Source of the DNA: Escherichia coli
GTDB taxonomy: Bacteria; Pseudomonadota; Gammaproteobacteria; Enterobacterales; Enterobacteriaceae
NCBI RefSeq assembly: GCF_048403405.1
Contig: NZ_CP183129.1
DNA: 64,000 nucleotides
Strand: one strand, 5' to 3'
In this document: in pieces, positions 40,679-63,418 of the stretch
Layout: every line of letters starts with the position of its first letter
Position numbering within the stretch: position 1 is the stretch's first letter
Made by a program: the position numbers and the translations under genes
Notes under the pieces: model-generated
Databases searched by the model: none
Seen by the model: only the letters and a program-made list of their open reading frames with translations
What the model was told of the DNA's origin: nothing

Positions 40679-40679
40679 T

Positions 40680-41297: not shown

Positions 41298-41307
41298 GGG
41301 CTACTCC

Positions 41308-43731
41308 TTAAACCTTTTCGATCTGGACAAGATTGCTGTGCGACGGGTTTCCCTTTGCCAGCGGTGAAGGGCGGTGAGAGGTCAGAATATTGATACTGCC
41401 GCCGTGATCGACCCGGTCACCAAACATATCCGCTTTAAGCCACGCACCTTGCCCGATGGCGGTAACGCCAGGCAGAATACGCGGAGTCACTTTTGCGGCA
41501 ATCAGCATTTCTCCATTATTGTTAAATACCCGCACGGTATCGCCATGACGGATACCGCGTGCCTGAGCATCAATAGGGTTGATCCACACCTCTTGTGGGC
41601 AGGCCTGCTGTAACACATCAATATTGCCGTAGCTGGAGTGGGTACGCGCTTTGTAGTGGAAGCCCGTTAGCTGCAGTGGATAGGTTTTCCGCAGGGGATC
41701 GTCCCAGCCATCAAAACCTGGGGTATACGCAGGAAGGGGATGAATAATTTCATCTTTTTTCAATTCCCAGGTATCCGCAATCGTCGCCAGTCGTTCAGAA
41801 TAAATTTCGATTTTCCCCGAAGGTGTTTTCAACGGGTTTGCCTGTGGATCTTCACGGAATGCGCGGAAAGCGACGTAGTGTTCTTCCGGGCATTTTTTCT
41901 TAAAGATCCCGGTCGTTTTCATCTCCTCGTAGTCGGGCATCTCAGGGTTACGTTCCTTCGTTTTCGCATGGAGATATTTGATCCATTCATGCTGACTGCG
42001 ACCTTCAGTAAAGGTTTGATAAACGTCTGGTCCTAAGCGTTTGGCGACTTCGCTCAGCATCCAGTAGATGGGTTTGCGTTCAAATTTTGCTGAGGTTGCG
42101 GGTTGGGCGAGGATCACATAGCCCATATTCCCGGCAGATTCGTGAGAGATAAGGTCTTCTTGCTCTGTTGGCATCAGGTCGGGCAACAGGATATCGCAAT
42201 ACTTAGCCGAGGCCGTCATGAAGTGGTCAATGCCAACAATCATCTCGCACTTGCTGTCATCCTGAAGCACCTCATGGGTGTGATTGATGTCGCCATGTTG
42301 ATTGATCAATGTGTTACTGGCGTAGCACCATAAAAACTTGATGGGGACATCCAGTTTTTCTTTTCCACGAACACCATCACGGGTCGCGGTCATTTCCGTA
42401 CCATGGTCGATGGCATCTGTCCATGTAAAGACGGAAATCTGCGTTTTAACAGGATTCTCAAGCATCGGGAACCATTCTACCCCCAGATCCCAGCTACCTT
42501 CGCGTACACCTGAGTTGCCGCCGTTTATGCCGACGTTACCGGTGAGAACGGAAAGCATGGCAATAGCGCGGGACGTTTGCTCGCCGTTGGAGTGTCGTTG
42601 TGGCCCCCAACCCTGACAAATATAAGCAGGTTTTGCTGAACCGATCTCTCGTGCCAACTGGATAATTTTTTCTGCCGGGATGCTGGTGATTTTTGCTGCC
42701 CATTCCGGCGTTTTAGCTATGCCGTCAGGCCCTTCGCCCAGAATATAGGCTTTATAATGCGCGTTACGTGGTGCGTTGGCGGGCAGCGTTTTTTCATCGT
42801 AACCAACACAATATTTGTCGAGAAATGGCTGATCGACCATGTTTTCAGTAATCAGTACCCAGGCAATCGCACAGGCCAGTGCGCCATCGGTGCCTGGGCG
42901 AATGGGCAGCCATTCATCTTCACGCCCGGCAGCAGTGTCGTTATAACGTGGATCGATGACGATCATGCGTGCGTTTGAACGTTCTCGGGCTTGCTCGACG
43001 TAGTAAGTGACACCACCGCCGCTCATCCGGGTTTCTGCCGGGTTATTTCCGAACATAACGACCAGTTTCGTATTGGCTATATCATCCGGGCTGTTGCCAT
43101 CATTGGCACCGAACATATAACTCATTGCGGCACTGATTTGAGCGGTACTGTAGCTGCCATAGCGACTGAGAAAACCACCGCAAGAGTTCATCAGACGGTA
43201 CGGGACGTTCGAGTTGGTGATGTTTCCGCCATCTACGCCTGTTCCGTACAGGACATGTACAGCCTCATTGCCGTATTCTTTCAGGATCCGCCGAAGATTA
43301 TCACTGATGGTATCCAGGGCTTCATCCCAACTTATCCGTTCAAATTTACCTTCACCGCGCTTGCCGACGCGCTTCATGGGATATTTCAACCTGTCAGGAT
43401 GATTCATCCGTCGGCGGATAGAGCGCCCGCGTAAACACGCCCGAACCTGATGATTACCGTAGACGTCGTCACCTGTCGTATCAGACTCCACCCAGTACAC
43501 GGTGTCATCTTTCACATGCAAACGTAACAGACAGCGGCTCCCGCAGTTAACGGTGCAGGAACTCCAGACCGCTTTCTCTTCTACCGGTGCCTCTGCCGCT
43601 CGGACCATTTGGGAAAATGGCAGAGTGAAAGCACTGCTTGCCAGCGCAAGACTGCCAAGTGCGGAGGTTTTCATCAGACTTCTACGGCTGATTTCAGCCT
43701 TCATGAGCGCCTCTGTGATATGGATTTTCAT
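41308..43731 (-). CDS. ynfF: molybdopterin oxidoreductase catalytic subunit (DmsA paralogue) with Tat signal
   Basis: About 807-aa protein with twin-arginine signal (SRRSLMKTSALGSLALA) and N-terminal Cys cluster; start taken at the second Met of the supplied ORF (MMKIH...), so it is uncertain by one codon. Confidence 0.9.
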   Translation of the reverse strand: MKIHITEALMKAEISRRSLMKTSALGSLALASSAFTLPFSQMVRAAEAPVEEKAVWSSCTVNCGSRCLLRLHVKDDTVYWVESDTTGDDVYGNHQVRACLRGRSIRRRMNHPDRLKYPMKRVGKRGEGKFERISWDEALDTISDNLRRILKEYGNEAVHVLYGTGVDGGNITNSNVPYRLMNSCGGFLSRYGSYSTAQISAAMSYMFGANDGNSPDDIANTKLVVMFGNNPAETRMSGGGVTYYVEQARERSNARMIVIDPRYNDTAAGREDEWLPIRPGTDGALACAIAWVLITENMVDQPFLDKYCVGYDEKTLPANAPRNAHYKAYILGEGPDGIAKTPEWAAKITSIPAEKIIQLAREIGSAKPAYICQGWGPQRHSNGEQTSRAIAMLSVLTGNVGINGGNSGVREGSWDLGVEWFPMLENPVKTQISVFTWTDAIDHGTEMTATRDGVRGKEKLDVPIKFLWCYASNTLINQHGDINHTHEVLQDDSKCEMIVGIDHFMTASAKYCDILLPDLMPTEQEDLISHESAGNMGYVILAQPATSAKFERKPIYWMLSEVAKRLGPDVYQTFTEGRSQHEWIKYLHAKTKERNPEMPDYEEMKTTGIFKKKCPEEHYVAFRAFREDPQANPLKTPSGKIEIYSERLATIADTWELKKDEIIHPLPAYTPGFDGWDDPLRKTYPLQLTGFHYKARTHSSYGNIDVLQQACPQEVWINPIDAQARGIRHGDTVRVFNNNGEMLIAAKVTPRILPGVTAIGQGAWLKADMFGDRVDHGGSINILTSHRPSPLAKGNPSHSNLVQIEKV

Positions 43732-43791
43732 CATTACTCACTTATTGCTTTTCAAACAAAATGTCATGTCAGAATTTATGGTTGTAGTGGG

Positions 43792-46218
43792 TTATATTTT
43801 TTCGATCTCGACCAGATTAGTGTGCTGCGGGTTTCCCTTCGCCAGTGGTGAAGGGCGCAGAGTGGTTAGCGTATTCACACAGCCGCCGTGGTCGATTTTA
43901 TCGCCAGACATATTGGCCTCGTGCCAGGCTCCCTGGCCCATAGCGCTAACCCCAGGGAGAATGCGTGGTGTTACTTTGGCTGGTAGCCGAACTTCGCCAC
44001 GATGGTTAAACACCCGCACCATATCGCCGTTGGCAATCCCACGTTTCTGTGCATCTATAGGGTTGATCCACACCTCCTGACGGCAGGCTGCCTTCAGGAC
44101 ATCAATATTGCCGTAGGTCGAGTGGGTACGGGATTTGTAATGGAAACCAAACAGTTGCAGTGGGAAGGTTCTACGTTCAGGGGAGTCCCAGCCTTCAAAG
44201 GTTGAGGCATAAACTGGCAGTGGGCTTATCACTTCATCTTTTTCCAGTTCCCAGGTACGGGCAATTTCCGCCAGCTTGCTGGAATAAATTTCAATCTTAC
44301 CGGAAGGCGTTTTAAGTGGATTTTCCTCGGGGTCGTCACGAAATGCTTTGTAGGCGACAAAATGACCATTGGGATCTTTACGCTTATAGATACCCATTTT
44401 TTTCAGTTCGTCGTAAGACGGTAACGCCGGATCTTTGGCAAGCATTTTGGCGTACAGATGTTGTAACCATTGTTCCTGCGTGCGACCTTCTGTGAACTTT
44501 TGATAGACGTCAGGTCCAAGACGTTTCGCGACCTCACTCAGGATCCAGTAAATCGGTTTGCGTTCGAATTTTTCGCTGGTGACTGGCTGGAGGAAAATGA
44601 GATATCCCATGTTACCGGCGTAGTCGTTAGGAATTATATCTTCCTGCTCAACGGTCATCAGGTCTGGCAGCAGAATGTCGGCATATTTTGCCGATGAGGT
44701 CATAAAGTTTTCGATGACCACAATCATTTCGCATTTCGATTCGTCCTGCAGAATTTCATGCGTTTTGTTGATGTCAGAATGCTGATTAACCAGGGTATTT
44801 CCCGCGTAGTTCCAGATGAACTTAATGGGCACATCCAGTTTATCTTTGCCCCGGACGCCGTCGCGGATTGCCGTCATTTGCGGGCCATGATCGATAGCAT
44901 CTGTCCAGCTGAAGCAGGAGATTGACGTTTTGACCGGATTATCCAGCACCGGTAGGCGTTCTATGGTAATGGTATAGGTCGATTCACGCGCGCCACTATT
45001 CCCGCCGCTGATGCCGACATTGCCCGTCAAAATAGGCAACATAGCAATAGCGCGTGCGGTCAGCTCACCGTTTGCCTGGCGTTGCGGCCCCCAACCCTGG
45101 CAGATATAAGCGGGTTTTGCTGTGCCAATTTCACGCGCCAGTTTGATGATACGGTCCACCGGGATACCGGTAATTTGCGAAGCCCACTGCGGCGTTTTCG
45201 CTGTTTTATCGTCACCTTCACCAAGAATATAGGCTTTATAGTGACCATTTTTTGGTGCATCTGCGGGTAAGGTTTTTTCGTCATAGCCGACGCAGTATTT
45301 ATCGAGAAAAGGTTGATCAACGAGATTTTCGTTAATCAATACCCAGGCAATACCCGCAACCAGCGCGGCATCGGTGCCCGGGCGAATAGGTAGCCATTCG
45401 TCTTCACGACCAGCAGCTGTATCGGTATATCGCGGATCGATAACAATCATTTTTGCGTTCGATTTCTCGCGCGCTTTTTCAAGAAGATAAGTGATGCCAC
45501 CGCCGCTCATGCGGGTTTCTGCCGGGTTGTTACCAAACATCACGACCAGCTTGCTGTTTTCAATATCCGTGGTGCTGTTGCCATCATTACTGCCGTAGGT
45601 GTAGGGCATGGCACAGGAAATTTGCGCGGTGCTGTAGGAGCCATACTGGTTGAGTGAACCGCCGTAGCAGTTCATCAGGCGTTTGACCGCCGAGGCGGAT
45701 GGCGAAGAGCGGGTCATATTGCCGCCAACGATCCCTGAAGAGTACTGAATATATACAGCCTCATTGCCATATTGTTCGACGGTTTTTTTCAGGCTACTGG
45801 CGATAGTATCCAGGGCTTCATCCCAGCTAATCCGTTCGAATTTGCCTTCGCCGCGTTTGCCCACGCGTTTCATTGGGTAATTCAAGCGATCGGGATGATT
45901 AATACGCCGACGGATGGAGCGACCGCGCAAACAGGCACGTACTTGATGATTGCCATACTCGTCGTTGCCGGTGTTGTCAGTTTCCACCCAGGTCACTTCA
46001 TTATCTTTAACATGCAGACGAAGTGCACAGCGGCTACCACAGTTGACGGAACAGGCACCCCAGACCACTTTCTCGCTGGCCTGCTGTACCGCTGCCGCTG
46101 CACTGCGCAGGGTGAACGGTAAAGAAAAACCGCCTGCAGCCAGCGCCAGAGAACCTATCGCGGTAGATTTAACGAGTGTTCTGCGGCTGATGCCCACCAT
46201 TTGTTCATTTTTGGACAT
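43792..46218 (-). CDS. ynfE: molybdopterin oxidoreductase catalytic subunit (DmsA paralogue) with Tat signal
   Basis: 808-aa protein with twin-arginine signal (SRRTLVKSTAIGSLALAAG); tandem paralogue of ynfF. Confidence 0.9.
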   Translation of the reverse strand: MSKNEQMVGISRRTLVKSTAIGSLALAAGGFSLPFTLRSAAAAVQQASEKVVWGACSVNCGSRCALRLHVKDNEVTWVETDNTGNDEYGNHQVRACLRGRSIRRRINHPDRLNYPMKRVGKRGEGKFERISWDEALDTIASSLKKTVEQYGNEAVYIQYSSGIVGGNMTRSSPSASAVKRLMNCYGGSLNQYGSYSTAQISCAMPYTYGSNDGNSTTDIENSKLVVMFGNNPAETRMSGGGITYLLEKAREKSNAKMIVIDPRYTDTAAGREDEWLPIRPGTDAALVAGIAWVLINENLVDQPFLDKYCVGYDEKTLPADAPKNGHYKAYILGEGDDKTAKTPQWASQITGIPVDRIIKLAREIGTAKPAYICQGWGPQRQANGELTARAIAMLPILTGNVGISGGNSGARESTYTITIERLPVLDNPVKTSISCFSWTDAIDHGPQMTAIRDGVRGKDKLDVPIKFIWNYAGNTLVNQHSDINKTHEILQDESKCEMIVVIENFMTSSAKYADILLPDLMTVEQEDIIPNDYAGNMGYLIFLQPVTSEKFERKPIYWILSEVAKRLGPDVYQKFTEGRTQEQWLQHLYAKMLAKDPALPSYDELKKMGIYKRKDPNGHFVAYKAFRDDPEENPLKTPSGKIEIYSSKLAEIARTWELEKDEVISPLPVYASTFEGWDSPERRTFPLQLFGFHYKSRTHSTYGNIDVLKAACRQEVWINPIDAQKRGIANGDMVRVFNHRGEVRLPAKVTPRILPGVSAMGQGAWHEANMSGDKIDHGGCVNTLTTLRPSPLAKGNPQHTNLVEIEKI

Positions 46219-46416
46219 AACTCACTCCCTGTTCTTTATCGTTATATAAAAGTTTATATATTGAATATTTAGCGCGCTAACAATAGAGGGAGTCTACCTA
46301 TTTTGGGTTAAGAATTATTAATCCATATCAATAGAAGGGTATGAGTAATAAGGTGGGATTATGTTGTATGTTCAAATCGCCGGATGTGTCGTATCCGGCG
46401 TGCAGTCGATAATGTA

Positions 46417-48940: not shown

Positions 48941-49145
48941 GGACATAAATCCATTTTATCAATAAGATACGAGGAAGTGTCAGCTGACAAAAGGTATTCT
49001 ATTTCATCTTTTGTCAACCATTCACGGCGTAAATATACGCCTTTTTTTGTGATCACTCCGGCTTTTTTTGATCTTCATACTTGTATGGTAGTAGCTCAGT
49101 TGCGTAGATTTCATGCATCACGACAAGCGATGCAAGGAATCGAAC

Positions 49146-50360
49146 ATGAAGATCGTAAAGGCTGAAGTTTTTGTTACCTGTCCGGGGCGTAATTTCGTCA
49201 CATTAAAAATCACCACTGAGGACGGTATTACGGGCCTTGGGGATGCCACCCTCAATGGACGTGAGCTTTCCGTGGCCTCTTATTTGCAGGATCACCTTTG
49301 TCCGCAGCTTATTGGTCGCGATGCACACCGTATCGAAGATATCTGGCAGTTTTTCTATAAAGGAGCTTACTGGCGTCGCGGCCCGGTGACGATGTCGGCC
49401 ATTTCAGCGGTTGATATGGCGCTGTGGGATATTAAAGCCAAAGCTGCCAACATGCCGCTTTACCAGTTACTCGGCGGCGCGTCTCGTGAAGGGGTGATGG
49501 TTTATTGCCATACCACCGGTCACAGTATTGATGAAGCTCTGGATGATTATGCTCGTCATCAGGAGCTGGGATTCAAAGCCATCCGCGTGCAGTGCGGAAT
49601 CCCTGGTATGAAAACCACCTACGGCATGTCGAAAGGTAAAGGTCTGGCTTATGAACCCGCAACCAAAGGACAGTGGCCGGAAGAGCAGCTGTGGTCGACG
49701 GAGAAATACCTCGATTTCATGCCGAAATTGTTTGACGCGGTACGTAACAAGTTTGGTTTTAATGAACATTTGCTGCATGACATGCACCATCGCTTAACGC
49801 CTATTGAAGCGGCGCGCTTTGGTAAAAGCATTGAAGATTATCGCATGTTCTGGATGGAAGACCCGACGCCTGCGGAAAACCAGGAATGCTTCCGTCTCAT
49901 TCGCCAACATACCGTCACACCCATCGCGGTGGGTGAAGTCTTCAACAGCATCTGGGACTGCAAGCAACTGATTGAAGAGCAACTTATCGATTATATCCGC
50001 ACCACGCTGACCCATGCAGGCGGAATTACCGGTATGCGCCGGATTGCCGATTTTGCTTCGTTGTATCAGGTACGTACTGGCTCACACGGTCCTTCCGATT
50101 TGTCACCAGTCTGCATGGCTGCGGCGCTGCACTTTGATCTGTGGGTCCCCAATTTCGGTGTTCAGGAGTACATGGGTTATTCCGAACAAATGCTTGAAGT
50201 CTTCCCGCACAACTGGACTTTCGATAACGGCTATATGCATCCGGGAGACAAACCGGGTCTTGGCATCGAATTCGATGAAAAGCTGGCGGCGAAATATCCC
50301 TATGAACCTGCTTATCTGCCAGTCGCACGTCTGGAAGATGGCACGCTGTGGAACTGGTAA
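49146..50360 (+). CDS. rspA: starvation-sensing protein RspA (enolase-superfamily mannonate dehydratase-like)
   Basis: Recalled 404-aa RspA from [17 protein letters not shown] (atg at 49146). Confidence 0.9.
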
Positions 50361-50371: not shown

Positions 50372-51391
50372 ATGAAAAGCATTTTAATTGAAAAACCGAA
50401 TCAACTGGCAATTATCGAACGCGAAATACCCACCCCGTCAGCGGATGAAGTACGAGTAAAAGTGAAACTTGCCGGAATTTGTGGTTCGGATAGCCATATT
50501 TATCGTGGGCATAATCCTTTTGCGAAATATCCGCGCGTCATTGGTCATGAATTCTTTGGCGTCATTGATGCAGTGGGTGAAGGCGTGGAAAGCGCCAGAG
50601 TCGGTGAACGCGTTGCTGTCGATCCGGTGGTCAGCTGTGGGCATTGCTATCCGTGCTCTATAGGTAAGCCGAACGTTTGTACAACACTGGCTGTATTAGG
50701 TGTGCACGCTGACGGTGGTTTCAGTGAATATGCCGTGGTTCCGGCAAAAAATGCGTGGAAAATTCCTGAAGCAGTGGCCGATCAATATGCGGTGATGATC
50801 GAACCTTTTACCATTGCGGCGAACGTAACCGGTCATGGTCAACCGACTGAAAATGATACCGTTCTGGTTTACGGTGCCGGTCCAATCGGCCTGACGATCG
50901 TTCAGGTATTAAAAGGCGTCTATAACGTTAAAAATGTGATTGTTGCCGATCGCATTGATGAACGACTGGAAAAAGCGAAAGAGAGCGGGGCTGACTGGGC
51001 GATTAATAACAGCCAGACACCGCTTGGCGAGATTTTCGCTGAAAAAGGCATAAAGCCGACATTAATTATCGATGCGGCTTGCCATCCTTCAATCCTGAAA
51101 GAAGCCGTAACGCTGGCTTCTCCGGCGGCACGTATTGTATTGATGGGCTTCTCCAGTGAACCGTCTGAAGTGATTCAGCAAGGAATTACCGGAAAAGAAC
51201 TCTCTATTTTCTCTTCACGCTTAAATGCAAATAAATTCCCGGTCGTTATCGACTGGTTAAGTAAAGGGTTAATTAAACCAGAAAAATTAATTACCCATAC
51301 GTTTGATTTCCAGCATGTTGCTGATGCCATTAGTTTATTTGAACAGGATCAAAAACATTGCTGCAAAGTCTTACTCACTTTTTCTGAATAA
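50372..51391 (+). CDS. rspB: starvation-sensing protein RspB (Zn-dependent alcohol dehydrogenase family)
   Basis: Recalled 339-aa RspB from MKSILIEKPNQLAI (atg at 50372, AAGGAG RBS); zinc-ligand GHEFFG and GCG motifs. Confidence 0.9.
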   Translation: MKSILIEKPNQLAIIEREIPTPSADEVRVKVKLAGICGSDSHIYRGHNPFAKYPRVIGHEFFGVIDAVGEGVESARVGERVAVDPVVSCGHCYPCSIGKPNVCTTLAVLGVHADGGFSEYAVVPAKNAWKIPEAVADQYAVMIEPFTIAANVTGHGQPTENDTVLVYGAGPIGLTIVQVLKGVYNVKNVIVADRIDERLEKAKESGADWAINNSQTPLGEIFAEKGIKPTLIIDAACHPSILKEAVTLASPAARIVLMGFSSEPSEVIQQGITGKELSIFSSRLNANKFPVVIDWLSKGLIKPEKLITHTFDFQHVADAISLFEQDQKHCCKVLLTFSE

Positions 51392-51448: not shown

Positions 51449-51559
51449 ATGACAATAGAAAAACACGAAAGAAGCACTAAGGATTTGGTGAAAGCAGCAG
51501 TATCGGGATGGCTGGGCACAGCGCTTGAATTTATGGATTTCAAGAGTCATGCGTGTTAA
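51449..51559 (+). pseudogene. ydfJ: 5' fragment of MFS transporter gene ydfJ, truncated by prophage insertion
   Basis: Hand-translated MTIEKHERSTKDLVKAAVSGWLGTALEFMDF matches my memory of the YdfJ N-terminus; the frame then runs into a stop after 5 foreign codons (KSHAC) at the prophage junction. Confidence 0.6.
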
Positions 51560-51578
51560 CTGTTTGATAAATATTAAA

Positions 51579-52859
51579 TTAATTTTTCATTGCTTCGTTA
51601 TGGGGCATGGTTGGGGCAAACTCGCTTAACTGTGTATTTAACAAAGCTACCTGTGCATTATTGTTTTCAGACATCCATTTTCCGTATACCTGAAATACCA
51701 TTTGCGCATCTGCATGGCCCATCTGGTTTGCTATAAATGCCGGGTTAGCACCAGCTGTCAGCGACCAGCAGGCATAAGTATGTCTCGACTGATATGATTT
51801 TCGATGGCGGAGTCCGGCACGTTTTATCGCTGCGTCCCACATCTGCCTTATTGAGTCAACGGTAAAATGGTCACCATAATTTTTTACTCTCGCTGACACT
51901 TCAGGTTGAAAAACAAAGGTGCATTTTTGTTTTTCTGTTCTGCCATACTCTCTGAGGTGAACATCAATGATATGCTCTTTGCTCAGTCTCGTTAATGTCA
52001 TCTGACTCCGGAGAGCGTCGATTGCTGGCTTAATAAGATGAATGACCCGATTGGTTCCCGCCTGTGTTTTTGGTACCGTGAAACGGTCTTTTGCTAAATT
52101 TCTCCTGATCATCATTGTTCCATTTTTCAGATCTATGTCCTCCCATCCAAGTGCACACAGCTCACCAGGGCGAACGCCAGTATAAACAGAAACACACCAT
52201 AAATTTTTGGCTTGCTGATTTCTGCACGCATCGATAAGACGGATGAATTCCTCCCGCGAAAGAGGATCCGGAATGGTTCTTGATTCCTTTAATGGCGAGA
52301 TCCCCTTAAACGGATTATCTGCCAGGTAACCGTTATCAACACCAAACTGGAACACGGCGTTAAGATTTGTCATGTAATTATTTACAGTTACAGCCGATCT
52401 CCCTGGTTGTGTAACAATATAGTTACTTTTGGGGATCTGGTATCCAGTCAGTAGCTCTTTACGAACCTCCAGTAATTTTTCTTTATTAATCGATGAGGCA
52501 AGATTTTTTTCACCGATTATGCTCAGGATATTTTTGATGACGGCACGGTATGTGTTGAGTGATGTTTTGGCGACTTCAGTTTCTTTCAGTGCCAGAAATT
52601 TTTCAGCCAGTTCTTTTATGGTTAAATCTTGTCGGGCCTCACCAAATTTTTCCAGATTGCGTGAGGAGGGAAACTGTTTTGCATAGTCGAAAACACCAGT
52701 TTTTATTGCGTAACAAACAGAGGAGCGTAGTTCACCTGCAACGCGCCTGTTTTTTGCTGTGTCAGGAACCCCCAGATTTTCCCTGACTCTTACGCCTTTA
52801 TAAACAAACCAGATACGTAATTTCCCTCCATGGTTTTCCACGCCTGTCGGATATTTCAT
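51579..52859 (-). CDS. phage tyrosine integrase (lambda Int family)
   Basis: About 426-aa protein with an R...HxxR...Y-type catalytic C-terminus (GLRHRKSYQSRHTYA region). Start placed at the Met with the better upstream purine-rich spacing; the supplied ORF start at 52874 is the alternative. Confidence 0.85.
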   Translation of the reverse strand: MKYPTGVENHGGKLRIWFVYKGVRVRENLGVPDTAKNRRVAGELRSSVCYAIKTGVFDYAKQFPSSRNLEKFGEARQDLTIKELAEKFLALKETEVAKTSLNTYRAVIKNILSIIGEKNLASSINKEKLLEVRKELLTGYQIPKSNYIVTQPGRSAVTVNNYMTNLNAVFQFGVDNGYLADNPFKGISPLKESRTIPDPLSREEFIRLIDACRNQQAKNLWCVSVYTGVRPGELCALGWEDIDLKNGTMMIRRNLAKDRFTVPKTQAGTNRVIHLIKPAIDALRSQMTLTRLSKEHIIDVHLREYGRTEKQKCTFVFQPEVSARVKNYGDHFTVDSIRQMWDAAIKRAGLRHRKSYQSRHTYACWSLTAGANPAFIANQMGHADAQMVFQVYGKWMSENNNAQVALLNTQLSEFAPTMPHNEAMKN

Positions 52860-52893
52860 TTCAACTTCTCTCATTAGTTAGTGTGGCTTTTAG

Positions 52894-53145
52894 TCAAGTA
52901 AGATGACGTCTTGGTCTCGCTGATGCCTGGCGCTCAATCCAGCGATCAATTTCTTCCAGGTTGTAAAAGCATGGACTGTTATCCCATGGCATACCGTCAT
53001 GAGCGACATGCTTATATTCCCTTCCTTCCATAAACGATTTTTCCCGGGCCTTTTTTAACGTACCTTTTTTTATTCCTTTCAGCGCAATTAACTGCTCTTC
53101 GGATACCCATTTGCCGGGAGAGACAATCATGATTACTTCGCTCAT
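52894..53145 (-). CDS. excisionase-like small DNA-binding protein
   Basis: 83-aa basic protein directly upstream of the integrase in the same orientation; annotated by size and position. Confidence 0.6.
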   Translation of the reverse strand: MSEVIMIVSPGKWVSEEQLIALKGIKKGTLKKAREKSFMEGREYKHVAHDGMPWDNSPCFYNLEEIDRWIERQASARPRRHLT

Positions 53146-53217: not shown

Positions 53218-55689
53218 TTAAGAATCAGCCTGACTCGGGATCAGTTTTTGCCAGATAACTGAAACGTATTTTGCCTGGTAACGGGCGTCATCAAGTGCAT
53301 TATGGCGCTCACCTTCGAATGGAATAGCCGTTCTGGCATCGAAGTCTATGGCTTTCCCCAGCTCAACGATTGTGCGTACATCGCGATCGTTGTAGTAACG
53401 CCACGGGCAGGGGATCCCCTGCCGTTCGTATGAACGGCGCAAAATCGTGTTGTCGAAGTTGGCTCCATTTCCCCAAACCTGAACAAAAAATTCACCGGAG
53501 TTTTCGTCGATAAATTCCCGCAATTGTAACAGTGCATCATCTAACGGGATTTCATCGGTCATAATGGCAGATTGCGCTTCGCGTGATTGCTTAAGCCACC
53601 ATTTAATGGTGTCCCGATCAATGACTCCGCCAGCAGTTTCCAGATCGATAGTCTTACTAAATTCCGGTCCCATATCTCCGGTTTGCGGATCGAAAAATAT
53701 TGCACCTATTGAGATGATCGGGGCATCAGGATTTTTTCCCATGGTTTCAAGGTCGATCATTAGATGGTCACACGTCCTGCTGGTGGATGTGATTTCGTGA
53801 TGACCGTTCACCTTAATTGGGTGATCTGCCGTCTCGCCAGTTTCATTATCGCTATTGTGATGCTGATTGCCGCCAGTGTTCTCCTTGTGTGGATGTTCAG
53901 CGCCTTCCATTTCCTCCGGATCATCTTCCTGAACTTCAACCTGATACTCTTCATCGAATGTTTCTTGGTATGTTGCGTCGCCCATCACCGCGCCACAATC
54001 AGGGCAGTTGCCGCCGCCGGTCTGACCGCAGGCGGTGCAGGCTTTTTCCACTTCCTGTTGCGCCACTGGTTCAGGCTGTTTCGTTTCTGGCTCGTTTTGT
54101 AACGCATTTGGACTGTTTTGTTCCGCTTTTTGGTAGTTCCGTTCCGATTCATGCTGGTTCTGGTTCACAGAATCGCGGGTCTGGATCCCCTTAACCCATT
54201 TCGGATCATTCGGGTCACTAATCCCTTCAACAAATTCACCACGTGATGCAGCAAGCAACTTATCGGCGTCAGGCTGGCTGATATTGGCTGCCTGCATAAT
54301 TTTGTTTACTTCGTCAGCGGTAACTTTTATCGGCTCTGGTTGTTCTGAATCTTCAGCGGTATCTACATTTTGCGGTAAGCCCGTGTATGTGCCATTTTTT
54401 CGGGCAAAATATTCTTCTTTTGTGATTTCAGTGGCGCCAGCAGCCAGTGCCTTATCCAGACCAGAAAGTTTGTTTGCGCGACCGTATTTTTCTCCGTCCT
54501 TATCTGCGAAGAGGAAATAGAACGGCCCCTCACGCTCTACAGATGGTTCAGTTTCCGGCGCGGTTTCATTTTTTGGGATATCAGATACCTCAGTTTCCAC
54601 TGCATCAGTTTGTGTTTCTGATGACTGGAGAACAGCAACAGTGCCCAGGTCTGTTTCTTCATTCTCAAACACGCCCTTTGTCGTCAGGTATTCGCAGATA
54701 TATTTGTTCAGTGCTACGGGATCTTTGTGAATGTCGATCGGACGCTCACGGACAAGGCCAAAAATAGTTTGGCGGTCGTAGCGAAGGGCATCAGGCTGTT
54801 TGCGTATTGATGCCGAGATACGCTTCCAGTCTTCGCGGTCGTTGTCGATAACTTCTTTTTTTGCCCAGCGATGGATGCTGCCGTCAATGTTTCCGGCATC
54901 CACATCACCAGGCCAGAGAGCGTAGGCCAGTTCGTCATCCAGTGTTTTCCATGTCTGCTTGTATTCGCGATGAATGGCAGCAATGACCGAGCTGATTTTT
55001 CCTGTTGAATTTTCAGTGTACTGTTGATTGGCTCTGGCGCGGGCGAGATCAACAACAGACGTGTATTTTCCGGTTTCCTTGCGTTCACCTTCGCGACGTT
55101 TTTTCCAGATGCGCATCTCTGCCTGAATTTCGGGCCATTTAGCACCAGGAATACATTTATGCTTAACCCACCCAATGGCGTGCAACTTAAGCTCCGGATA
55201 CATGGCGTTAACTTCTGGCATTTTCATCAACGCTTCAACGATATGTCCGTCGAATGTTGCCATGTCTTCCTGCAACAATTCCTGTGCGCTAATAACCATA
55301 TCAACGGTGATGTTTTCACATGTGTCGAACTTAACCATGACAGCGTTCTGTACTTCAGGGGCCAGCTTGTCAAAAGTGACGTTCATCGGATCGGATTCAG
55401 TCTCAACCGGGACAAAAGAAGCAGACTCCTCATCCCAGCGGTTTTCCTGCATATATTCAGCATCCCATGAATCGAGGGCAGGGCGGGGTATGCCAGGTTT
55501 ATCCTCGCAGACAATAAATTTATAAGCGCAGTCCTGAGCAGCCGGATAATGTTCCAGGAATTGCCAGTGAAATTTTGCTCGAGCACGGCGTTCGTCGCCA
55601 GCTTCAATGGCTGTGGCTACAGCCACAGCGCCTTCTTCCCTTGTTGCCAGTTCGTCAGGAATAGCGGCGCAAATAAAGACTTTACTCAT
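53218..55689 (-). CDS. prophage exonuclease (exodeoxyribonuclease VIII-like; C-terminal DEDDh/DnaQ-type 3'-5' exonuclease domain)
   Basis: 823-aa protein; the C-terminal part has Exo I (MIDLETMG), Exo II (GANFD) and Exo III (HNALDDA) motifs; a central acidic low-complexity tract with a CxxC-x7-CxxC knuckle (CTACGQTGGGNCPDC). It sits where K-12 Qin has the truncated ydfE. Confidence 0.75.
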   Translation of the reverse strand: MSKVFICAAIPDELATREEGAVAVATAIEAGDERRARAKFHWQFLEHYPAAQDCAYKFIVCEDKPGIPRPALDSWDAEYMQENRWDEESASFVPVETESDPMNVTFDKLAPEVQNAVMVKFDTCENITVDMVISAQELLQEDMATFDGHIVEALMKMPEVNAMYPELKLHAIGWVKHKCIPGAKWPEIQAEMRIWKKRREGERKETGKYTSVVDLARARANQQYTENSTGKISSVIAAIHREYKQTWKTLDDELAYALWPGDVDAGNIDGSIHRWAKKEVIDNDREDWKRISASIRKQPDALRYDRQTIFGLVRERPIDIHKDPVALNKYICEYLTTKGVFENEETDLGTVAVLQSSETQTDAVETEVSDIPKNETAPETEPSVEREGPFYFLFADKDGEKYGRANKLSGLDKALAAGATEITKEEYFARKNGTYTGLPQNVDTAEDSEQPEPIKVTADEVNKIMQAANISQPDADKLLAASRGEFVEGISDPNDPKWVKGIQTRDSVNQNQHESERNYQKAEQNSPNALQNEPETKQPEPVAQQEVEKACTACGQTGGGNCPDCGAVMGDATYQETFDEEYQVEVQEDDPEEMEGAEHPHKENTGGNQHHNSDNETGETADHPIKVNGHHEITSTSRTCDHLMIDLETMGKNPDAPIISIGAIFFDPQTGDMGPEFSKTIDLETAGGVIDRDTIKWWLKQSREAQSAIMTDEIPLDDALLQLREFIDENSGEFFVQVWGNGANFDNTILRRSYERQGIPCPWRYYNDRDVRTIVELGKAIDFDARTAIPFEGERHNALDDARYQAKYVSVIWQKLIPSQADS

Positions 55690-55782: not shown

Positions 55783-55974
55783 TTAAAGACCTGCCGGGAT
55801 TTCGATATTATCCTGGTGAATAACTTTATCGACCGGGTAACAGTTACCGGGAATTTTCTGTTCGGTTGCTGCAGTCATACACTCCTGCATTGTCCTGTGA
55901 ACACTGACTGCAATATCAACTGGCACTCCGGAAACAAGAAAAACTGTCAGAACAAGCGCAAATGCTGAATTCAT
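55783..55974 (-). CDS. ydfD: prophage lysis protein YdfD
   Basis: 63-aa protein MNSAFALVLTVFLVSGVPVDIAVSVHRTMQECMTAATEQKIPGNCYPVDKVIHQDNIEIPAGL, close to my memory of K-12 YdfD; N-terminal hydrophobic segment. Confidence 0.85.
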   Translation of the reverse strand: MNSAFALVLTVFLVSGVPVDIAVSVHRTMQECMTAATEQKIPGNCYPVDKVIHQDNIEIPAGL

Positions 55975-56159
55975 TGTGCACATCCTTTTGGCATCAGACG
56001 TAAACGAGCCAGCATTGAAACAATGCATATTTTATTTAATAGCTCCCGTTCTTGTTTTCTCTTGTTAATGGCATCTTCAGTAAATACAGGGTTACTGATA
56101 GTGACACCAATTTCAAAACAACCTTCAGACGTATTAACGTTTGGTAATAACGTTTTCAT
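55971..56159 (-). CDS. dicB: cell-division inhibitor DicB
   Basis: 62-aa protein MKTLLPNVNTSEGCFEIGVTISNPVFTEDAINKRKQERELLNKICIVSMLARLRLMPKGCAQ, matching my memory of DicB; 4-nt overlap with ydfD. Confidence 0.9.
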   Translation of the reverse strand: MKTLLPNVNTSEGCFEIGVTISNPVFTEDAINKRKQERELLNKICIVSMLARLRLMPKGCAQ

Positions 56160-56333: not shown

Positions 56334-56386
56334 CGGCGGCAGAGCAGTCACGGAGTAAAACTGATACCGCCAAACGTCACCAGAAA
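56334..56386 (-). ncRNA. dicF: DicF small regulatory RNA
   Basis: Minus-strand sequence TTTCTGGTGACGTTTGGCGGTATCAGTTTTACTCCGTGACTGCTCTGCCGCC matches my memory of the 53-nt DicF; the exact 3' end is not determinable from sequence. Confidence 0.85.
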
Positions 56387-56645
56387 ATTGATAACAGAGG
56401 GCGTTGCAGCGGGGTTGTCACTTAAGCGTATGGTCAACCTGACAACTCGGTGTCCTCAACGGGGAAGGAATAACCCCGCCATACTTACCGCCGCGCCATT
56501 TTGCGGGTTGCCACAACCGGAAGCGCACGGTCGAATTAAATTTAACGACACCGTACAGTGAGACGAACTTCGCCGTGCGCTTTCGTGTTGTGTGCCTGCT
56601 TTTAACCACGTCAGGCGAGGTGGTATCCTTAAAATCACCACAGTT

Positions 56646-57221
56646 TTAAGGATTCATTAAGCAATGTCGCAACCACCAATAAATCCGCTTAAGAACATGA
56701 AAATTGATTACTGGTATAAAGCGCTTACAGTTGTTGGCGCTGCGTTGTTTGTCTTTAATGGAACGTCTTTTTTTGACAGATATCCCGTTGTTCCATTGGG
56801 TTTTTTGTCCTCCGGCATCTTTTTTATTGGTTTGGGGGAGTGGATTAATCACCCTCTCAAAGTGAGATTTATTGGTCCTGGAGTTTGGACTCGTGGATAT
56901 AATCGTTCTTCGTGCGCACTCGGTATCATCTTCGACATACTTGGTTGTTTCCTGATTGTTACAGGAGTCGTCAAGTTCTTCTGATGTAAAACCGCAAATG
57001 GGGCACGTAACGGGAATTTTGAAAAGCGTTTCTCCGGGTTCCAGAACAAAATTTTCTGCGGTCTGATTTTGCTTCTCATATTTGTGCTCCGCGTCATTGT
57101 GAGAGCACATTCTTATTCTGAGTGCCTGTTTAAACTCACTGAAGCTGAGAGCTTCTTCGCCTTCGGCAAGGCCTTCGAAGTATTCTTCGTAAGCCTTTTC
57201 CATGATTGTGTCGAAATCCAT
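56646..57221 (-). CDS. hypothetical early-left protein (ydfB/ydfC region)
   Basis: Start MDFDTIMEKAYEEYFEGL at 57221 with AGGTGAG RBS, 1 nt after the ydfA stop; contains a CPxC knuckle (PVTCPICGF). The C-terminal two-thirds is low-complexity N/K/R-rich and overlaps the plus-strand ORF, so the true 3' end is uncertain. Confidence 0.45.
   Translation of the reverse strand: MDFDTIMEKAYEEYFEGLAEGEEALSFSEFKQALRIRMCSHNDAEHKYEKQNQTAENFVLEPGETLFKIPVTCPICGFTSEELDDSCNNQETTKYVEDDTECARRTIISTSPNSRTNKSHFERVINPLPQTNKKDAGGQKTQWNNGISVKKRRSIKDKQRSANNCKRFIPVINFHVLKRIYWWLRHCLMNP
56664..56984 (+). CDS. candidate 106-aa three-helix membrane protein, antisense to the early-left operon
   Basis: ORF with three hydrophobic segments and basic residues in the loops, AAGGA about 11 nt upstream of the ATG, G-rich first codon positions. 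It is exactly codon-antisense to the 3' part of the minus-strand ORF 56646..57221, so only one of the two is likely to be real. Confidence 0.4.
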   Translation: MSQPPINPLKNMKIDYWYKALTVVGAALFVFNGTSFFDRYPVVPLGFLSSGIFFIGLGEWINHPLKVRFIGPGVWTRGYNRSSCALGIIFDILGCFLIVTGVVKFF

Positions 57222-57222
57222 A

Positions 57223-57378
57223 TCACTCACCTGAGTTTCTTTCCAGCCAGCGACGGGCACCATTTTCGGTTTTAAACGTTTTGCTTTTGGTATACGTCAT
57301 CGCGGTGAACGTGCCGTCCTGGTTGGGGAACACGCCACATACCAGAGATTCGCTGTTGCCAAGATCGATAGTATCCAT
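57223..57378 (-). CDS. ydfA: small prophage protein YdfA
   Basis: 51-aa protein MDTIDLGNSESLVCGVFPNQDGTFTAMTYTKSKTFKTENGARRWLERNSGE, matching my memory of K-12 YdfA; first gene after the left operator. Confidence 0.8.
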   Translation of the reverse strand: MDTIDLGNSESLVCGVFPNQDGTFTAMTYTKSKTFKTENGARRWLERNSGE

Positions 57379-57491
57379 GCTGACCTCATTTCCCCTTAAC
57401 GCCGGGGTCGCGGAACTGTTTGCTGAGAACACCGTGCGGTGTCTTGATGGAAAGTAATTTAGAATAACCTAACATGAGAGGCAAGTGTTTT

Positions 57492-57511
57492 TTGTTAGAT
57501 TGATCTAACAA
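57492..57511. promoter_or_regulatory. palindromic operator (GTTAGA-N4-TCTAAC) between dicA and ydfA (early-left promoter region)
   Basis: Seen in sequence: TTGTTAGAT-TG-ATCTAACAA, perfect 9-bp half-sites; same half-site as the operator in the dicA-dicC intergenic region. Confidence 0.65.
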
Positions 57512-57546
57512 AAAGAGTGGGCGCAACTAATCACTTGAAAAGAATG

Positions 57547-57954
57547 TTATTTTATTGATTTATTTTTACGCGCTTTAAGCATTTCTTCGAAGAGTTTGTT
57601 GAAGTTTTCTACTCTTGCGCGCATTTCAGACAGCAAGGCTTCCTGCTCGGAAGATGGAAGAGCATCGAATAATTCGATCAATTCTTTGTGGTTGGGAGTT
57701 AGCTCTGTTTCCACATGAAGTTCTTGTGCAGGCACTGGTGCCTTGTCTTCGTCACCAAACATTAGCCATGTAGGTGAGCACTTCAGAGCATCCGCTAAAG
57801 CAAACAATCGTTTTCCGACTGGCTGGGTTTCGTCTCTTTCCCATTGTGAAATTGTGACGTGAGCAACTCCAGCGAGGCGCGCAGCTTCTCGTTGTGTTAA
57901 GCGTAATTCTTTTCGTCGCGCCAGAACTCGCTGGCCTAGGGTTCTTGTATCCAT
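57547..57954 (-). CDS. dicA: DicA-like HTH_XRE immunity repressor (cI functional analogue)
   Basis: 135-aa protein with XRE-type HTH (LRLTQREAARLAGVAHVTISQWERDE); similar to, but clearly diverged from, my remembered K-12 DicA; divergent from the Cro-like gene. Confidence 0.85.
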   Translation of the reverse strand: MDTRTLGQRVLARRKELRLTQREAARLAGVAHVTISQWERDETQPVGKRLFALADALKCSPTWLMFGDEDKAPVPAQELHVETELTPNHKELIELFDALPSSEQEALLSEMRARVENFNKLFEEMLKARKNKSIK

Positions 57955-57976
57955 AGTTAGGTAATTCTAATTTTTC

Positions 57977-58020
57977 TTGACTTAGGTATCCCGCGCACAA
58001 TAATGTTAGAAAAGTCTAAC
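57977..58020 (+). promoter_or_regulatory. dicC-type promoter with overlapping palindromic operator
   Basis: TTGACT (57977..57982), about 18-bp spacer, TAATGT (58001..58006), overlapped by the palindrome GTTAGA-AAAG-TCTAAC (58005..58020); GGGGG RBS before the dicC-like start. Confidence 0.6.
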
Positions 58021-58031
58021 AAGAGGGGGCT

Positions 58032-58262
58032 TTGATGCTTAAAGTTGACGCAATTACTTTTTTTGGCAGCAAAACAAAGCTTGCCAATGCCGCAGGAGTG
58101 AGACTGGCAAGTGTTGCTGCTTGGGGGATACTGGTTCCTGAAGGTCGCGCGATGCGTCTACAGGAGGCATCTGGCGGGGAGCTTCAGTATGATCCCAAAG
58201 TTTATGACGAATATCGTAAGACGAAGCGGGCGGGGCGGTTGAACAATGAAAATCACTCCTGA
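58032..58262 (+). CDS. dicC: DicC-like Cro-type repressor
   Basis: 76-aa protein; its C-terminal half (EGRAMRLQEASGGELQYDPKVYDEYRKTKRAGRLNNENHS) matches my memory of DicC. Confidence 0.85.
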   Translation: MMLKVDAITFFGSKTKLANAAGVRLASVAAWGILVPEGRAMRLQEASGGELQYDPKVYDEYRKTKRAGRLNNENHS

Positions 58263-58767
58263 ACAGGCTCGTGAGGCTCTGGATGCCTGGATATGTCGAC
58301 CAGGAATGACACAGGAGCAGGCGACGATATTAATCACTGAAGCATTCTGGGCTTTGAAAGAGCGCCCGAACATCGATGTTCAGCGTGTCACATATGAAGG
58401 TGGCGCGGTTGATCAGCGAGCGCTTAGCGTTAATCGAGTGAAGATATTCGAACGCTGGAAGGCTATCGACACCAGGGATAAGCGTGAAAAGTTCACAGCG
58501 CTAGTGCCTGCAATTATGGAGGCTATCCGGATTAGTGATTTCAGGTTGTATCGTGAGATCAGTGATGGAAAAAGTATTACGTACATGATCGCCGGGTTAA
58601 ATAAAGAATATGGCGATGTGGTGGAATCCGGACTGCTTTTTGCAGATCCTGCCGTTGTAGATCGTGAAACTGACGAACTTATAGAAAAAGCAATTGCTTT
58701 CAAGCTTGCGTATCGACAGCAATACCAACAAAAAGCTGGATGGAATTATGAGTCTTCTTTTTGCTGA
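58246..58767 (+). CDS. hypothetical protein in the cII-equivalent position (possibly YdaT-like)
   Basis: 173-aa ORF overlapping the dicC-like 3' end by 17 nt; the YdaT/cII-analogue assignment is by position only. Confidence 0.4.
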   Translation: MKITPEQAREALDAWICRPGMTQEQATILITEAFWALKERPNIDVQRVTYEGGAVDQRALSVNRVKIFERWKAIDTRDKREKFTALVPAIMEAIRISDFRLYREISDGKSITYMIAGLNKEYGDVVESGLLFADPAVVDRETDELIEKAIAFKLAYRQQYQQKAGWNYESSFC

Positions 58768-59713
58768 ACGCCCACTGGTTATAAACACGCAGCTGGCAAT
58801 GAAAATCGGCTTAAACGAAGCCATTGTTTTGCAACAACTGCACTACTGGTTGAGAGATACCAACTCCGGTATGGAATGTGATGGTGTTCGCTGGATTTAT
58901 AACACAACGGAACAATGGCTGGAACAGTTCCCATTCTGGTCAGAGTCAACGTTAAAGCGCGCGTTTGCAAGTCTGAAAACGCTGGGGCTTTTGCGTTGTG
59001 AAAAGCTCAATAAATCAAAGCGCGATATGACCAATTTCTACACGATCAACTATGGGAGCGAGCTTTTAGATGGTGGCAAATTGAACGAATCCATCGGTTC
59101 AAAATGCGCCGCTCCATCAGGTCAAAATGACACGATGGAAGAGGTCAAAATGAAACGCTCCATTGGTTCAAAACGACCCAATGTCATCGGGTCAAAATGG
59201 CCTGATGATCTTACAGAGAATACAACAGAGATTACTACAGAGAATAAAAACACTTTTCGTCCGGAAGCTTCGCAACCGGACCCGCAGACGACTGAACAGG
59301 ATTTTTTAACCCGGAACCCCGACGCGGTTGTGTTTAGTGTGAAAAAACGCCAGTGGGGTAGCAGGGAGGATTTGGCGTGTGCGCAGTGGATTTGGGGGCG
59401 GATCGTGAACCTTTACGAACAGGCTGCCAGCGACGATGGAGAGATCATGCGACCAAAAGAGCCTAACTGGACAGCCTGGGCCAATGACGTGCGCACAATG
59501 CGGATGCTGGATGGCAGAAGCCACAGACAAATTTGCGAAATGTTTGGTCGGGTACAGCGGGATCCATTCTGGGTAAAAAACATCATGAGCCCGTCAAAAC
59601 TCCGCGAAAAATGGGACGAACTGGTCATCCGCCTGGGACGTTCACCTGTACAGCGTTGTGTTAATCATATTTCTGAACCGGATACAGAAATTCCGCCTGG
59701 TTTCAGGGGATAA
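58748..59713 (+). CDS. phage replication initiator / replisome organiser (lambda O-like)
   Basis: N-terminal wHTH-like segment (LAMKIGLNEAIVLQQLHYWL) typical of phage replisome-organiser N-domains; the gene contains an iteron array followed by an AT-rich tract; the protein has the corresponding IGSK peptide repeats. Start codon uncertain (58694 or 58748). Confidence 0.7.
   Translation: MSLLFAERPLVINTQLAMKIGLNEAIVLQQLHYWLRDTNSGMECDGVRWIYNTTEQWLEQFPFWSESTLKRAFASLKTLGLLRCEKLNKSKRDMTNFYTINYGSELLDGGKLNESIGSKCAAPSGQNDTMEEVKMKRSIGSKRPNVIGSKWPDDLTENTTEITTENKNTFRPEASQPDPQTTEQDFLTRNPDAVVFSVKKRQWGSREDLACAQWIWGRIVNLYEQAASDDGEIMRPKEPNWTAWANDVRTMRMLDGRSHRQICEMFGRVQRDPFWVKNIMSPSKLREKWDELVIRLGRSPVQRCVNHISEPDTEIPPGFRG
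59093..59200. repeat. origin-like iteron array inside the O-like gene
   Basis: Five direct repeats of (A/T)TCNGGT(T)CAAAA(T/C)G spaced 21-25 bp apart (about 59096, 59120, 59144, 59165, 59190), followed by an AT-rich stretch (about 59200..59260). Confidence 0.65.
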
Positions 59714-59753
59714 GTGTTGATTTCAGGTCATGAGATAATTTTAAGGGGGACTT

Positions 59754-60155
59754 GTGGCAAAAGTTTTTACACAAGAAGAGCGGGAAAAAATTAAAGGGCA
59801 GGTTGTTGAACTCGTACGCCGGAGTGGGCGTGAGACGTTACGGCAACTGGAAGTCAAGACAGGTGCGACAAGATATCTGATGAGCGTTCTCGCAAGAGAG
59901 CTGGTTGCCAGCGGCGATGTATACAACTCTGGTTACGGGTTATTCCCGTCTGAACAGGCGCGTAAGGACTGGCAAAATGCCCGTAAAAAGCTCTCAAGGG
60001 CAAAGCTGAAGAAACCATCTGCGGTTGATCCGGACCTTATCTGGTCATTACCTGACGGAGAAATACGTCGCTACGACAGGCGTCAGAACATAATCTGCCG
60101 CGAGTGCCGGAAGAGTGAAGTTATGCAGCGCATACTGGCATTTTATCAGGGATAA
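59754..60155 (+). CDS. hypothetical prophage protein
   Basis: 133-aa ORF with GTG start and strong AAGGGGGA RBS; basic, contains a CxxC pair (CRECRK); function unknown. Confidence 0.55.
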   Translation: MAKVFTQEEREKIKGQVVELVRRSGRETLRQLEVKTGATRYLMSVLARELVASGDVYNSGYGLFPSEQARKDWQNARKKLSRAKLKKPSAVDPDLIWSLPDGEIRRYDRRQNIICRECRKSEVMQRILAFYQG

Positions 60156-60688
60156 TGTTAGGTATTTTAGACGTTACTAGATTAAAAAGCATTAGTTCAG
60201 GAGTGAATTGACATTCTCATTTTTCATGGCACAGGGTAGATCTGGCGTGGTTGTCCGCTTTGTGCCAACAGCGGACGTTACTAACGAAACTGTGAGTTAA
60301 AAACGGGAGCTGGTCACCTCCATCCCGCGAAATGGAATTCAAAAATGCCCTCATGTACGGTACTTCTAGTCTGATGTGAGCATTTTCGTGGATTTTTTCG
60401 AGCCACTCCAACGAATGATTACATTCAGTTTCGGGCACTAAAACGTCATAAATCCGCAAGTTGAGGAGTAGCGATCAGCCAATTGGTTAAAAAACAGCTT
60501 TAATTCCCTTTTTCAAGCAGGCTCCTTGTCGCACGTCTGGTGCATCCAATTCATTTCAGTTACCCTGATGCCATACTGGCACGGACTAGCTCTCTTAATT
60601 GGCGCTGGTTTGTTAACCTTGTCCGCTGTCGGGTCTTTGTAAGTTGTAATTCCTAAACTAGCATAATTTTATTATAAGGCCTCTTACT

Positions 60689-61714: not shown

Positions 61715-62448
61715 AAAATGTTATCTGGAGTGGTCTGAATTCTACTAACTTAGTTTTTTCAGACCGCTTCTGACCACAATGGCCTGTGAGGTTCTGCTGC
61801 TAGTCAACATAAAATAACAAAGCCGGCAGGTGGTGGTTGTTGTAAAGTTATTCAATGACATTCATGGAGGCTTAAGCGAATTATTTGTCCCTGGTCGGTA
61901 TGGTGGCAACAGCTTGTTGCGAGAATTTGGCTAATTTGGACTGACTTCCGCTCCTTGCTCAAAGCGGACTAGAAGGTTAGCTTGTGTCGGACTTTGCGTA
62001 TTAAAAGAAGTGCTGGTGGTGACTAGTGGTTGAGCCCCATTTCCACAGAAAAAATCAGAGAAACTATACCCAATAGTTGTATTGAATCACTGACGAGACA
62101 GCCTCATATTCATCAGGACTGGTGTACGTCCAATACAGGAGGTTGTGGTGCTGGTTCTCAAATGTGCGCTGGCTATTACGGCTGTAATGGCGATTTATTG
62201 TCTTGCTATTGTTCTTATGGATCGCCTTTCTGACTGATTTCATATTGGCGAGGTAAAGGTAGTTAAGTAGAATGGCTGCGGGTGCTTGAGGCTATCTGCC
62301 TCGGGCATGAACACCAAAGGCAGATAGAGAAAAGCCCCAGTTAACATTACGCGTCCTGCAAGACGCTTAACATTAATCTGAGGCCAATTTCATGCTAGAC
62401 ACATGTAGGTTAGCCTCTTACGTGCCGGAAGGCAAGGAGAAGCAGGCT

Positions 62449-63417: not shown

Positions 63418-63418
63418 C

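Follow-up and report, generated by a model that had tools for sequence, protein, structure and literature searches.

The question raised by the locus studied here is whether a ydfJ reading frame that breaks off next to an integrase gene marks a true prophage end, and whether that prophage may still leave the chromosome. Prophages at the Qin locus are found in 48% of strains; they measure between 11 and 97 kb, and degraded copies are frequent (PMC6379469). As the integrase gene intQ is mutated in most of them, integrity is not universal at this site (PMC6379469). In this study, we analysed a stretch of 64,000 nucleotides of Escherichia coli DNA, referred to here as the window, and compared its junction with empty sites, free phage genomes, and related lysogens. 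Positions 51531-51541 very probably represent the attL core of a lambdoid prophage of the Qin/mEp460 family, inserted in codons 29-31 of ydfJ and equipped with full-length int and xis genes, which is likely to be excisable.

On the chromosomal side, the junction is preceded by rspA (49113-50360) and, immediately beside the insertion site, rspB (50372-51391, plus strand), an open reading frame that carries the rspB annotation in the strains A0 34/86, MS 69-1, and K-12. From the ATG at 51449, the sequence encodes MTIEKHERSTKDLVKAAVSGWLGTALEFMDF, the first 31 codons of ydfJ (51449-51541, plus strand), which constitute the B arm of attL; judged by its sequence, the identity of this segment with ydfJ is a matter of homology and not of chance. 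After codon 31 the frame reads KSHAC and a stop codon, as opposed to QLYSL (QLYSLGAALVF) in intact YdfJ, and the first base off ydfJ is 51542, an A instead of a C, from which point the DNA is of phage origin. The result is a hybrid open reading frame of 36 codons, 31 from ydfJ and five from the phage (51449-51559, plus strand), whose translation is that of the K-12 ynfP (b4534) protein. The preliminary description had ydfJ readable for 31 codons and breaking off at about 51541/51542; these coordinates proved exact, and the flank is that of TUM14771, a strain with an intact ydfJ.

The core itself, TTATGGATTTC (51531-51541), is common to attP and attB, contains the crossover region, and occurs as a single copy in the window. 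The ATG within it is codon 29 of ydfJ, so that the insertion falls at codons 29-31 of this MFS-transporter gene; this also explains why the ydfJ on the attR side is annotated as a 1,284-nt gene in K-12 and why a 28-codon truncation of ydfJ has been described (PMC6379469). In strain SK1144, whose ydfJ is intact, attB reads …GCGCTTGAATTTATGGATTTC / CAGTTATATTCG… (the two halves are separated here by a slash), and in the free phage HannyBb attP reads …ACCTGTGAATT-ATGGATTTC / AAGAGTCATGCG…. The window has …GCGCTTGAATTTATGGATTTC / AAGAGTCATGCG…, to which attB contributes its left half and attP its right half, and the attR of A0 34/86, MS 69-1, and K-12, …ACCTGTGAATT-ATGGA(T/C)TTC / CAGTTATATTCG…, is the reciprocal product. 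A core in ydfJ and an attL of this composition, which characterize insertions of the Qin/mEp460 type, are thus both present. The prophage junction proposed earlier within ydfJ is identified as a true attL by this four-way comparison, which supports a genuine Int-made attL of a Qin-family prophage.

According to this geometry, a phage tyrosine integrase joined attP (…GTGAATT-ATGGATTTC / AAGAGTCATG…) to attB (…CTTGAATTTATGGATTTC / CAGTTATATT…) within the shared TTATGGATTTC. The left product of this reaction is seen in the window, where codons 1-31 of ydfJ run on into five codons of phage origin, as in the K-12 ynfP reading frame; the far-end product, as it occurs in relatives, leaves a ydfJ able to restart at Met29. 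The P' arm of attL (51542-51620) contains two TGGGGCA repeats (51601-51607 and 51612-51618), which lie within the 3' end of int and are also present in the P arm of the HannyBb attP; they may be considered candidate arm-type Int sites. A repeat scan of the HannyBb attP region returned weak two-copy families only, TGGGGCA (family D2) among them. In the HannyBb annotation, an open reading frame for a ‘hypothetical protein’ (23911-24144) runs straight across attP and probably does not correspond to a real gene.

The integrase gene (51579-52874, minus strand) is convergent with ydfJ, and its stop codon lies 37 bp past the junction. The open reading frame encodes a full-length tyrosine integrase of 431 amino acids; RefSeq places the start at the ATG at 52859, five codons later, which gives 426 amino acids. 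Pfam profiles identified an N-terminal arm-binding domain (PF12167, Arm-DNA-bind_2, E 3.7e-23, residues 9-72) and a catalytic domain (PF00589, Phage_integrase, E 8.7e-18, residues 206-397), and the protein also matches PHROG 1, integrase (E 2.6e-76). NCBIfam gave far sub-threshold Xer-type matches only for Int, and an NCBIfam profile search of Xis gave no match; the family assignments of both proteins were taken from Pfam and PHROGs instead. The full-length integrase with a convergent stop right after the junction, as it was first noticed, is hence borne out, with both domains in place.

Catalytic residues were assigned from a HMMER alignment to the Tn1549 Int (PDB 6EMY) and from the Int proteins of VT1-Sakai and BP-4795. 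In the former alignment, R235, K269 (PKT), R364-H365 (RHT), H387 (GH), and Y397 fall at conserved positions, and the complete set assigned to this Int consists of R235, K269, Y361 at the His-I position, R364, H387, and Y397. An inactivating lesion among the catalytic residues, against which the preliminary description had cautioned, was looked for, and on the HMMER alignment the residues are in place. The tyrosine at the His-I position is apparently a trait of the family rather than a lesion, as the Int proteins of VT1-Sakai and BP-4795, at 62% identity, have the same KSYQSRHTYACWS box. A MAFFT alignment to lambda Int, with which the protein shares 24% identity, was also tried for the assignment and dropped, as it placed the HxxR box (box II) off by about four residues. 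With its catalytic domain, catalytic residues, and N-terminal arm-binding domain, the protein fits the tyrosine recombinases of the lambda-type heterobivalent class. It is identical to the Int of strain A0 34/86 and differs by one residue each from those of the phages HannyBb (A428S) and PhiR42_1 (G27D). Recombination of attP with attB by this Int, and of attL with attR under the direction of Xis, are putative activities of the window copy; they are deduced indirectly from the att geometry, the scarless empty site in the same backbone, and the presence of an almost identical Int in deposited phages.

Upstream of int, and in the same orientation, lies a gene for an 83-amino-acid protein (52894-53145, minus strand), which ends 19 bp before the int start. 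The protein matches the DUF1233 ‘putative excisionase’ family of Pfam (PF06806, E 1.9e-31) over model positions 1-69 of 70, as well as PHROG 539, excisionase (E 1.4e-35), and it is identical in HannyBb, PhiR42_1, and A0 34/86. A DUF1233 excisionase is recognized by a full-length profile match directly upstream of int on the same strand, which is what was found. The gene is the excisionase-like one mentioned in the preliminary description and lies just beyond the interval given there.

In systems of the lambda type, Int binds core and arm sites, and Xis together with host bending proteins directs excision between attL and attR. The module described here is similar to that of lambda in having a heterobivalent Int with an N-terminal arm-binding domain, a small xis upstream of int in the same operon, and an attP beside the int stop codon, with the P' arm overlapping the int 3' end. 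It differs from lambda in the sequence of Int (24% identical), in the DUF1233 family of its Xis, in its core, in the tyrosine that replaces the first catalytic histidine, and in its target, which is inside a coding sequence, whereas that of lambda lies between gal and bio. On derepression, Int and Xis with host IHF and Fis, as in lambda, would recombine attL with attR; excision would release a circle of about 44-45 kb and restore ydfJ intact.

The genes that follow are those expected of the early region of a Qin/mEp460-type phage, i.e., an exonuclease gene, ydfD, dicB, DicF, a dicA/dicC-type switch, hok/sok, and rem. The exonuclease (823 amino acids; 53218-55689, minus strand) matches PHROG 2082 over its full length; K-12 retains a truncated remnant of it, the ydfE pseudogene. 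With coordinates taken from the colinear A0 34/86 annotation, ydfD (55783-55974) and dicB (55971-56159) follow on the minus strand, and DicB is 100% identical to its K-12 counterpart. The DicF small RNA (56334-56385, minus strand) was identified by Rfam RF00039 with 72.5 bits (gathering score 48). A DicA-like repressor of 135 amino acids with a helix-turn-helix motif (57547-57954, minus strand) faces genes on the plus strand for a DicC/Cro-like regulator (58035-58262) and a YdaT/CII-like protein (58246-58767), both recognized from the A0 34/86 annotation, comparison with K-12 proteins, and PHROG matches. An O-like replication initiator (58748-59713) and a DUF977/Ren-like protein (59754-60155), a pair supported by PHROG 391 and PHROG 142 as well as by annotation, complete this part of the plus strand. 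Further to the right on the same strand are the sok RNA (62280-62454; Rfam RF01794, 117 bits), hokD (62449-62604, from annotation), and rem (62821-63072), which encodes a DicA antirepressor 96% identical to K-12 Rem, its function being known from published work (PMC10448788).

Between the replication genes and hok/sok, in the position of a moron, lies a gene for a CapRel-like protein of 341 amino acids with a RelA/SpoT domain (60689-61714, plus strand), which is cargo outside the integration module and belongs to a block missing from HannyBb. The protein matches the ‘RelA/SpoT family protein’ of PDB 7ZTB/9ERV over its full length (E 2.6e-34) and the PADLOC candidate system PDC-S33 (E 5e-119). 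We take PDB 7ZTB to be the fused toxin-antitoxin defence protein CapRel SJ46. A separate mosaic block, 56630-57235, distinguishes the window from MS 69-1. It holds, in the window as well as in A0 34/86 and HannyBb, an open reading frame for a protein of 205 amino acids (56646-57263, minus strand; PHROG 35040, unknown function), which is left unannotated by RefSeq in A0 34/86, where a ‘ydfB pseudogene’ is called instead.

The prophage is closely related to Qin of K-12 (U00096 1632277-1652745), with which it shares the insertion site, the attL including the 36-codon ynfP reading frame, dicB (100% at the protein level), DicF, rem (96%), the hok/sok module, ydfU, and ydfD. The integrase of K-12 Qin had been described beforehand as a pseudogene, and indeed intQ (b1579) is flagged as such and abuts IS2E. 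It is without the first approximately 45 residues, and the remaining 387 (45-431) are 99.7% identical to the window Int, differing by L307F only. Through IS2E, K-12 Qin has been deprived of xis, of the N-terminal arm-binding part of Int, and of the larger part of its exonuclease gene, whereas the window keeps all of them. In addition, K-12 Qin measures 20.5 kb and is without head or tail genes, its DicA-type immunity allele is 57% identical to that of the window, and its moron region contains relBE-ydfV-flxA in place of the RelA/SpoT gene.

A second set of relatives comprises the deposited phages mEp460_ev081 (LR597641), HannyBb (PP925841), PhiR42_1 (PV340562), and Tritos (OV696610), which are free phage genomes, in contrast to the integrated element of the window, known from sequence alone. 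This Int occurs in all four genomes at a minimum of 99.3% identity (99.3-99.8%, the lower value being that of mEp460_ev081 and Tritos), and their Xis is identical to that of the window. The int-xis module at attL therefore matches modules of deposited phages, including that of mEp460_ev081, which is reported to be a functional temperate phage with dicA, dicB, dicF, and rem (PMC10448788). The HannyBb attP supplies the exact phage halves of both attL and attR. These phages cover 61-79% of the window prophage DNA at 96-98% identity, and relative to HannyBb the window has mosaic replacements of the repressor allele (52% identity) and of the RelA/SpoT region, for which HannyBb has no equivalent. 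The STEC prophages known as PPydfJ (O26:H11 strain 11368, O157:H7, and O177:H25) share the integration locus and, by published description, carry type III effector loci (nleC, nleG) and intra-prophage attB sites and form clusters (PMC8112680); none of these features is seen in the window's 12.5 kb.

The window ends 12.5 kb into the prophage (12,459 phage bases), and the right part, of approximately 32 kb, lies beyond its edge. A search of the 64-kb window for the continuation of ydfJ, allowing up to three mismatches, gave no match, nor was a second core found. As the prophage runs off the right edge, attR was taken from relatives. The second ydfJ fragment and the matching att site that the preliminary description expected are consequently outside the window, and they are intact in the nearest relatives, A0 34/86 and MS 69-1. 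Six complete genomes, MS 69-1 and TUM14771 among them, match the flank from 28000 to 51448 at 100.0% identity. The prophage of MS 69-1 is complete, with terminase, portal, a protease-capsid fusion, tail genes, J, tail fibres, pin, ydfK, and ynfT, and ends in attR and the 3' part of ydfJ. The closest prophage, that of A0 34/86, is colinear with the window and 99.8% identical over its 12,459 phage bases without an indel; no match above 99.8% to the prophage part was found among RefSeq complete genomes. It measures 45,273 bp and, mosaic blocks aside, is colinear over its whole length with the HannyBb genome (45,272 bp), including the terminase, portal, capsid, tail, lysis, and pin regions. Both A0 34/86 and MS 69-1 thus harbour one complete lambdoid prophage of about 44-45 kb at ydfJ, with attR and the ydfJ 3' part; small pseudogenes called by RefSeq in the two copies are ydfB, cspF, and a tail-fibre assembly fragment. 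By analogy with these two genomes, the part of the prophage outside the window is probably complete too, and its right end would read …GTGAATTATGGATTTCCAGTTATATTCG… followed by ydfJ codons 32-455. Outside the prophage, a 6.4-kb segment of the window (40010-46378) is deleted in A0 34/86, which keeps a short DmsC/YnfH-family remnant; the counterpart in the genomes with the identical backbone contains ynfE and ynfF (selenate/tellurate reductase subunits).

In TUM14771, ydfJ is uninterrupted (NZ_CP128875.1 754759-756126; 1,368 nt). Its sequence agrees with the window at each of the 1,411 nt up to 51541 and with MS 69-1 at each of the 3,000 nt that run rightwards from the core. By these comparisons, TUM14771 is a scarless empty site (attB) in the same backbone, and it can serve as a natural control for the unoccupied site and is a candidate indicator host.

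At the core, the level of sequence divergence shifts abruptly. There are 45 differences to A0 34/86 in the 2,230 positions of the flank (2.0%), the last of them at 51520, and 25 in the 12,459 positions of the prophage (0.2%). The comparison with MS 69-1 gives the opposite picture, with no difference in the flank and the first prophage differences at 51551, 10 bp past the core; there are 29 differences up to 56630, then a swapped 0.6-kb block, and near-identity from 57314 to 64000. Our first guess, a prophage inherited vertically with the locus, was dropped because of this stepwise change. The step suggests recent Int-mediated integration or replacement at ydfJ, for which this is the expected pattern; hosts that are closely related may have acquired their prophages independently or by replacement. 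Homologous recombination alone is disfavoured, as it would require a crossover within about 10 bp. The step does not, however, prove that the present copy is able to excise. The same backbone occurs empty (TUM14771), with the MS 69-1 variant, and with the window variant, and divergence sets in 10 bp past the core. This suggests that Int-mediated integration or replacement took place at ydfJ repeatedly and very recently. On these grounds it is conceivable, if somewhat short of probable, that this lineage harbours the prophage as a temperate phage that is still active; its lysogeny would be under a DicA/Rem antirepressor switch that does without RecA cleavage, and its cargo would include a CapRel-like gene for defence. 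In that case, the strain would offer a natural setting in which to look for the signal that sets off Rem and the dicBF operon.

The preliminary description suggested mitomycin C or SOS induction for recovering the excised form. However, inducibility by these means should not be assumed, because the repressor is a homologue of DicA, whose published antagonist is the antirepressor Rem; the trigger of Rem is unknown (PMC10448788). From its short length (135 amino acids) and from its matches to transcriptional-regulator families only among the PHROGs, we infer that the repressor does not have a LexA-like cleavage (peptidase) domain. Derepression would probably proceed via Rem acting on the DicA-like repressor rather than via RecA-mediated cleavage. 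The repressor is 57% identical to K-12 DicA and 52% to that of HannyBb, and Rem is 96% identical to K-12 Rem; to act on all of these, one Rem would have to cope with widely divergent DicA alleles.

Could the junction be a mere endpoint of a deletion or rearrangement that happened to fall near an integrase gene, with no site-specific recombination involved? We found no supporting point for this explanation and consider it extremely improbable, as the break falls to the base in the 11-bp identity between the attP of the free phage and the attB of empty sites, the reciprocal attR is present in relatives, and the same junction occurs in thousands of genomes. It is also improbable, though less extremely so, that the prophage belongs to a tandem or composite cluster whose left end falls in the window; the int-xis pair beside rspB would then act with an internal att site and not with the 3' fragment of ydfJ. 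Two to four prophages may occur grouped at ydfJ, as has been described for O157:H7, O26:H11, and O177:H25 (PMC8112680), and against MS 69-1 the prophage looks like a hybrid, with a divergent left 5.8 kb and a nearly identical right part, which would fit a past double-lysogen intermediate; however, MS 69-1 and A0 34/86 carry single prophages, and the visible 12.5 kb has no sign of a second element.

The alternative with the greatest weight, which we still regard as unlikely, is that the prophage is grounded in spite of its intact int and xis genes, either by a lesion beyond the window or by lack of int-xis expression, and is as immobile as Qin in K-12. The right 32 kb could have lost attR or hold a mutated one, could contain an IS insertion, or could have suffered deletion of morphogenesis genes; the range of sizes and frequent decay of prophages at this locus, the small pseudogenes called in the A0 34/86 and MS 69-1 copies, and the unknown trigger of Rem are all compatible with such a fate. 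On the other hand, the two closest genomes hold complete prophages colinear with HannyBb and with intact attR, the visible 12.5 kb is free of frameshifts and IS elements relative to a deposited phage genome, and the same backbone occurs with a scarless empty site. As far as sequence comparison can tell, excision competence of the window prophage is likely.

The insertion site, the att sequence, the approximately 50% occupancy, and the existence of functional relatives are already known, and in these respects the element is ordinary; the finding matters little beyond correct annotation and will not surprise a specialist. Phages integrated in ydfJ have been reported in many strains, with an att sequence of 18-19 bp defined in the gene, and the attP-containing junction of the circular, excised form of a ydfJ prophage has been amplified by PCR and sequenced from O26:H11 strain 11368 (PMC8112680). 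What the element does provide is a view of K-12 Qin before decay, with full-length int, xis, and exonuclease genes and, in close relatives, the complete 44-45 kb genome, and the induction of a live Qin-type phage under Rem/DicA control could be studied in strains of this lineage. Among 5,426 complete E. coli genomes, the rspB-int-xis arrangement (at least 80% of the query) is present in 2,638, about half, and the uninterrupted rspB-ydfJ junction in 2,011.
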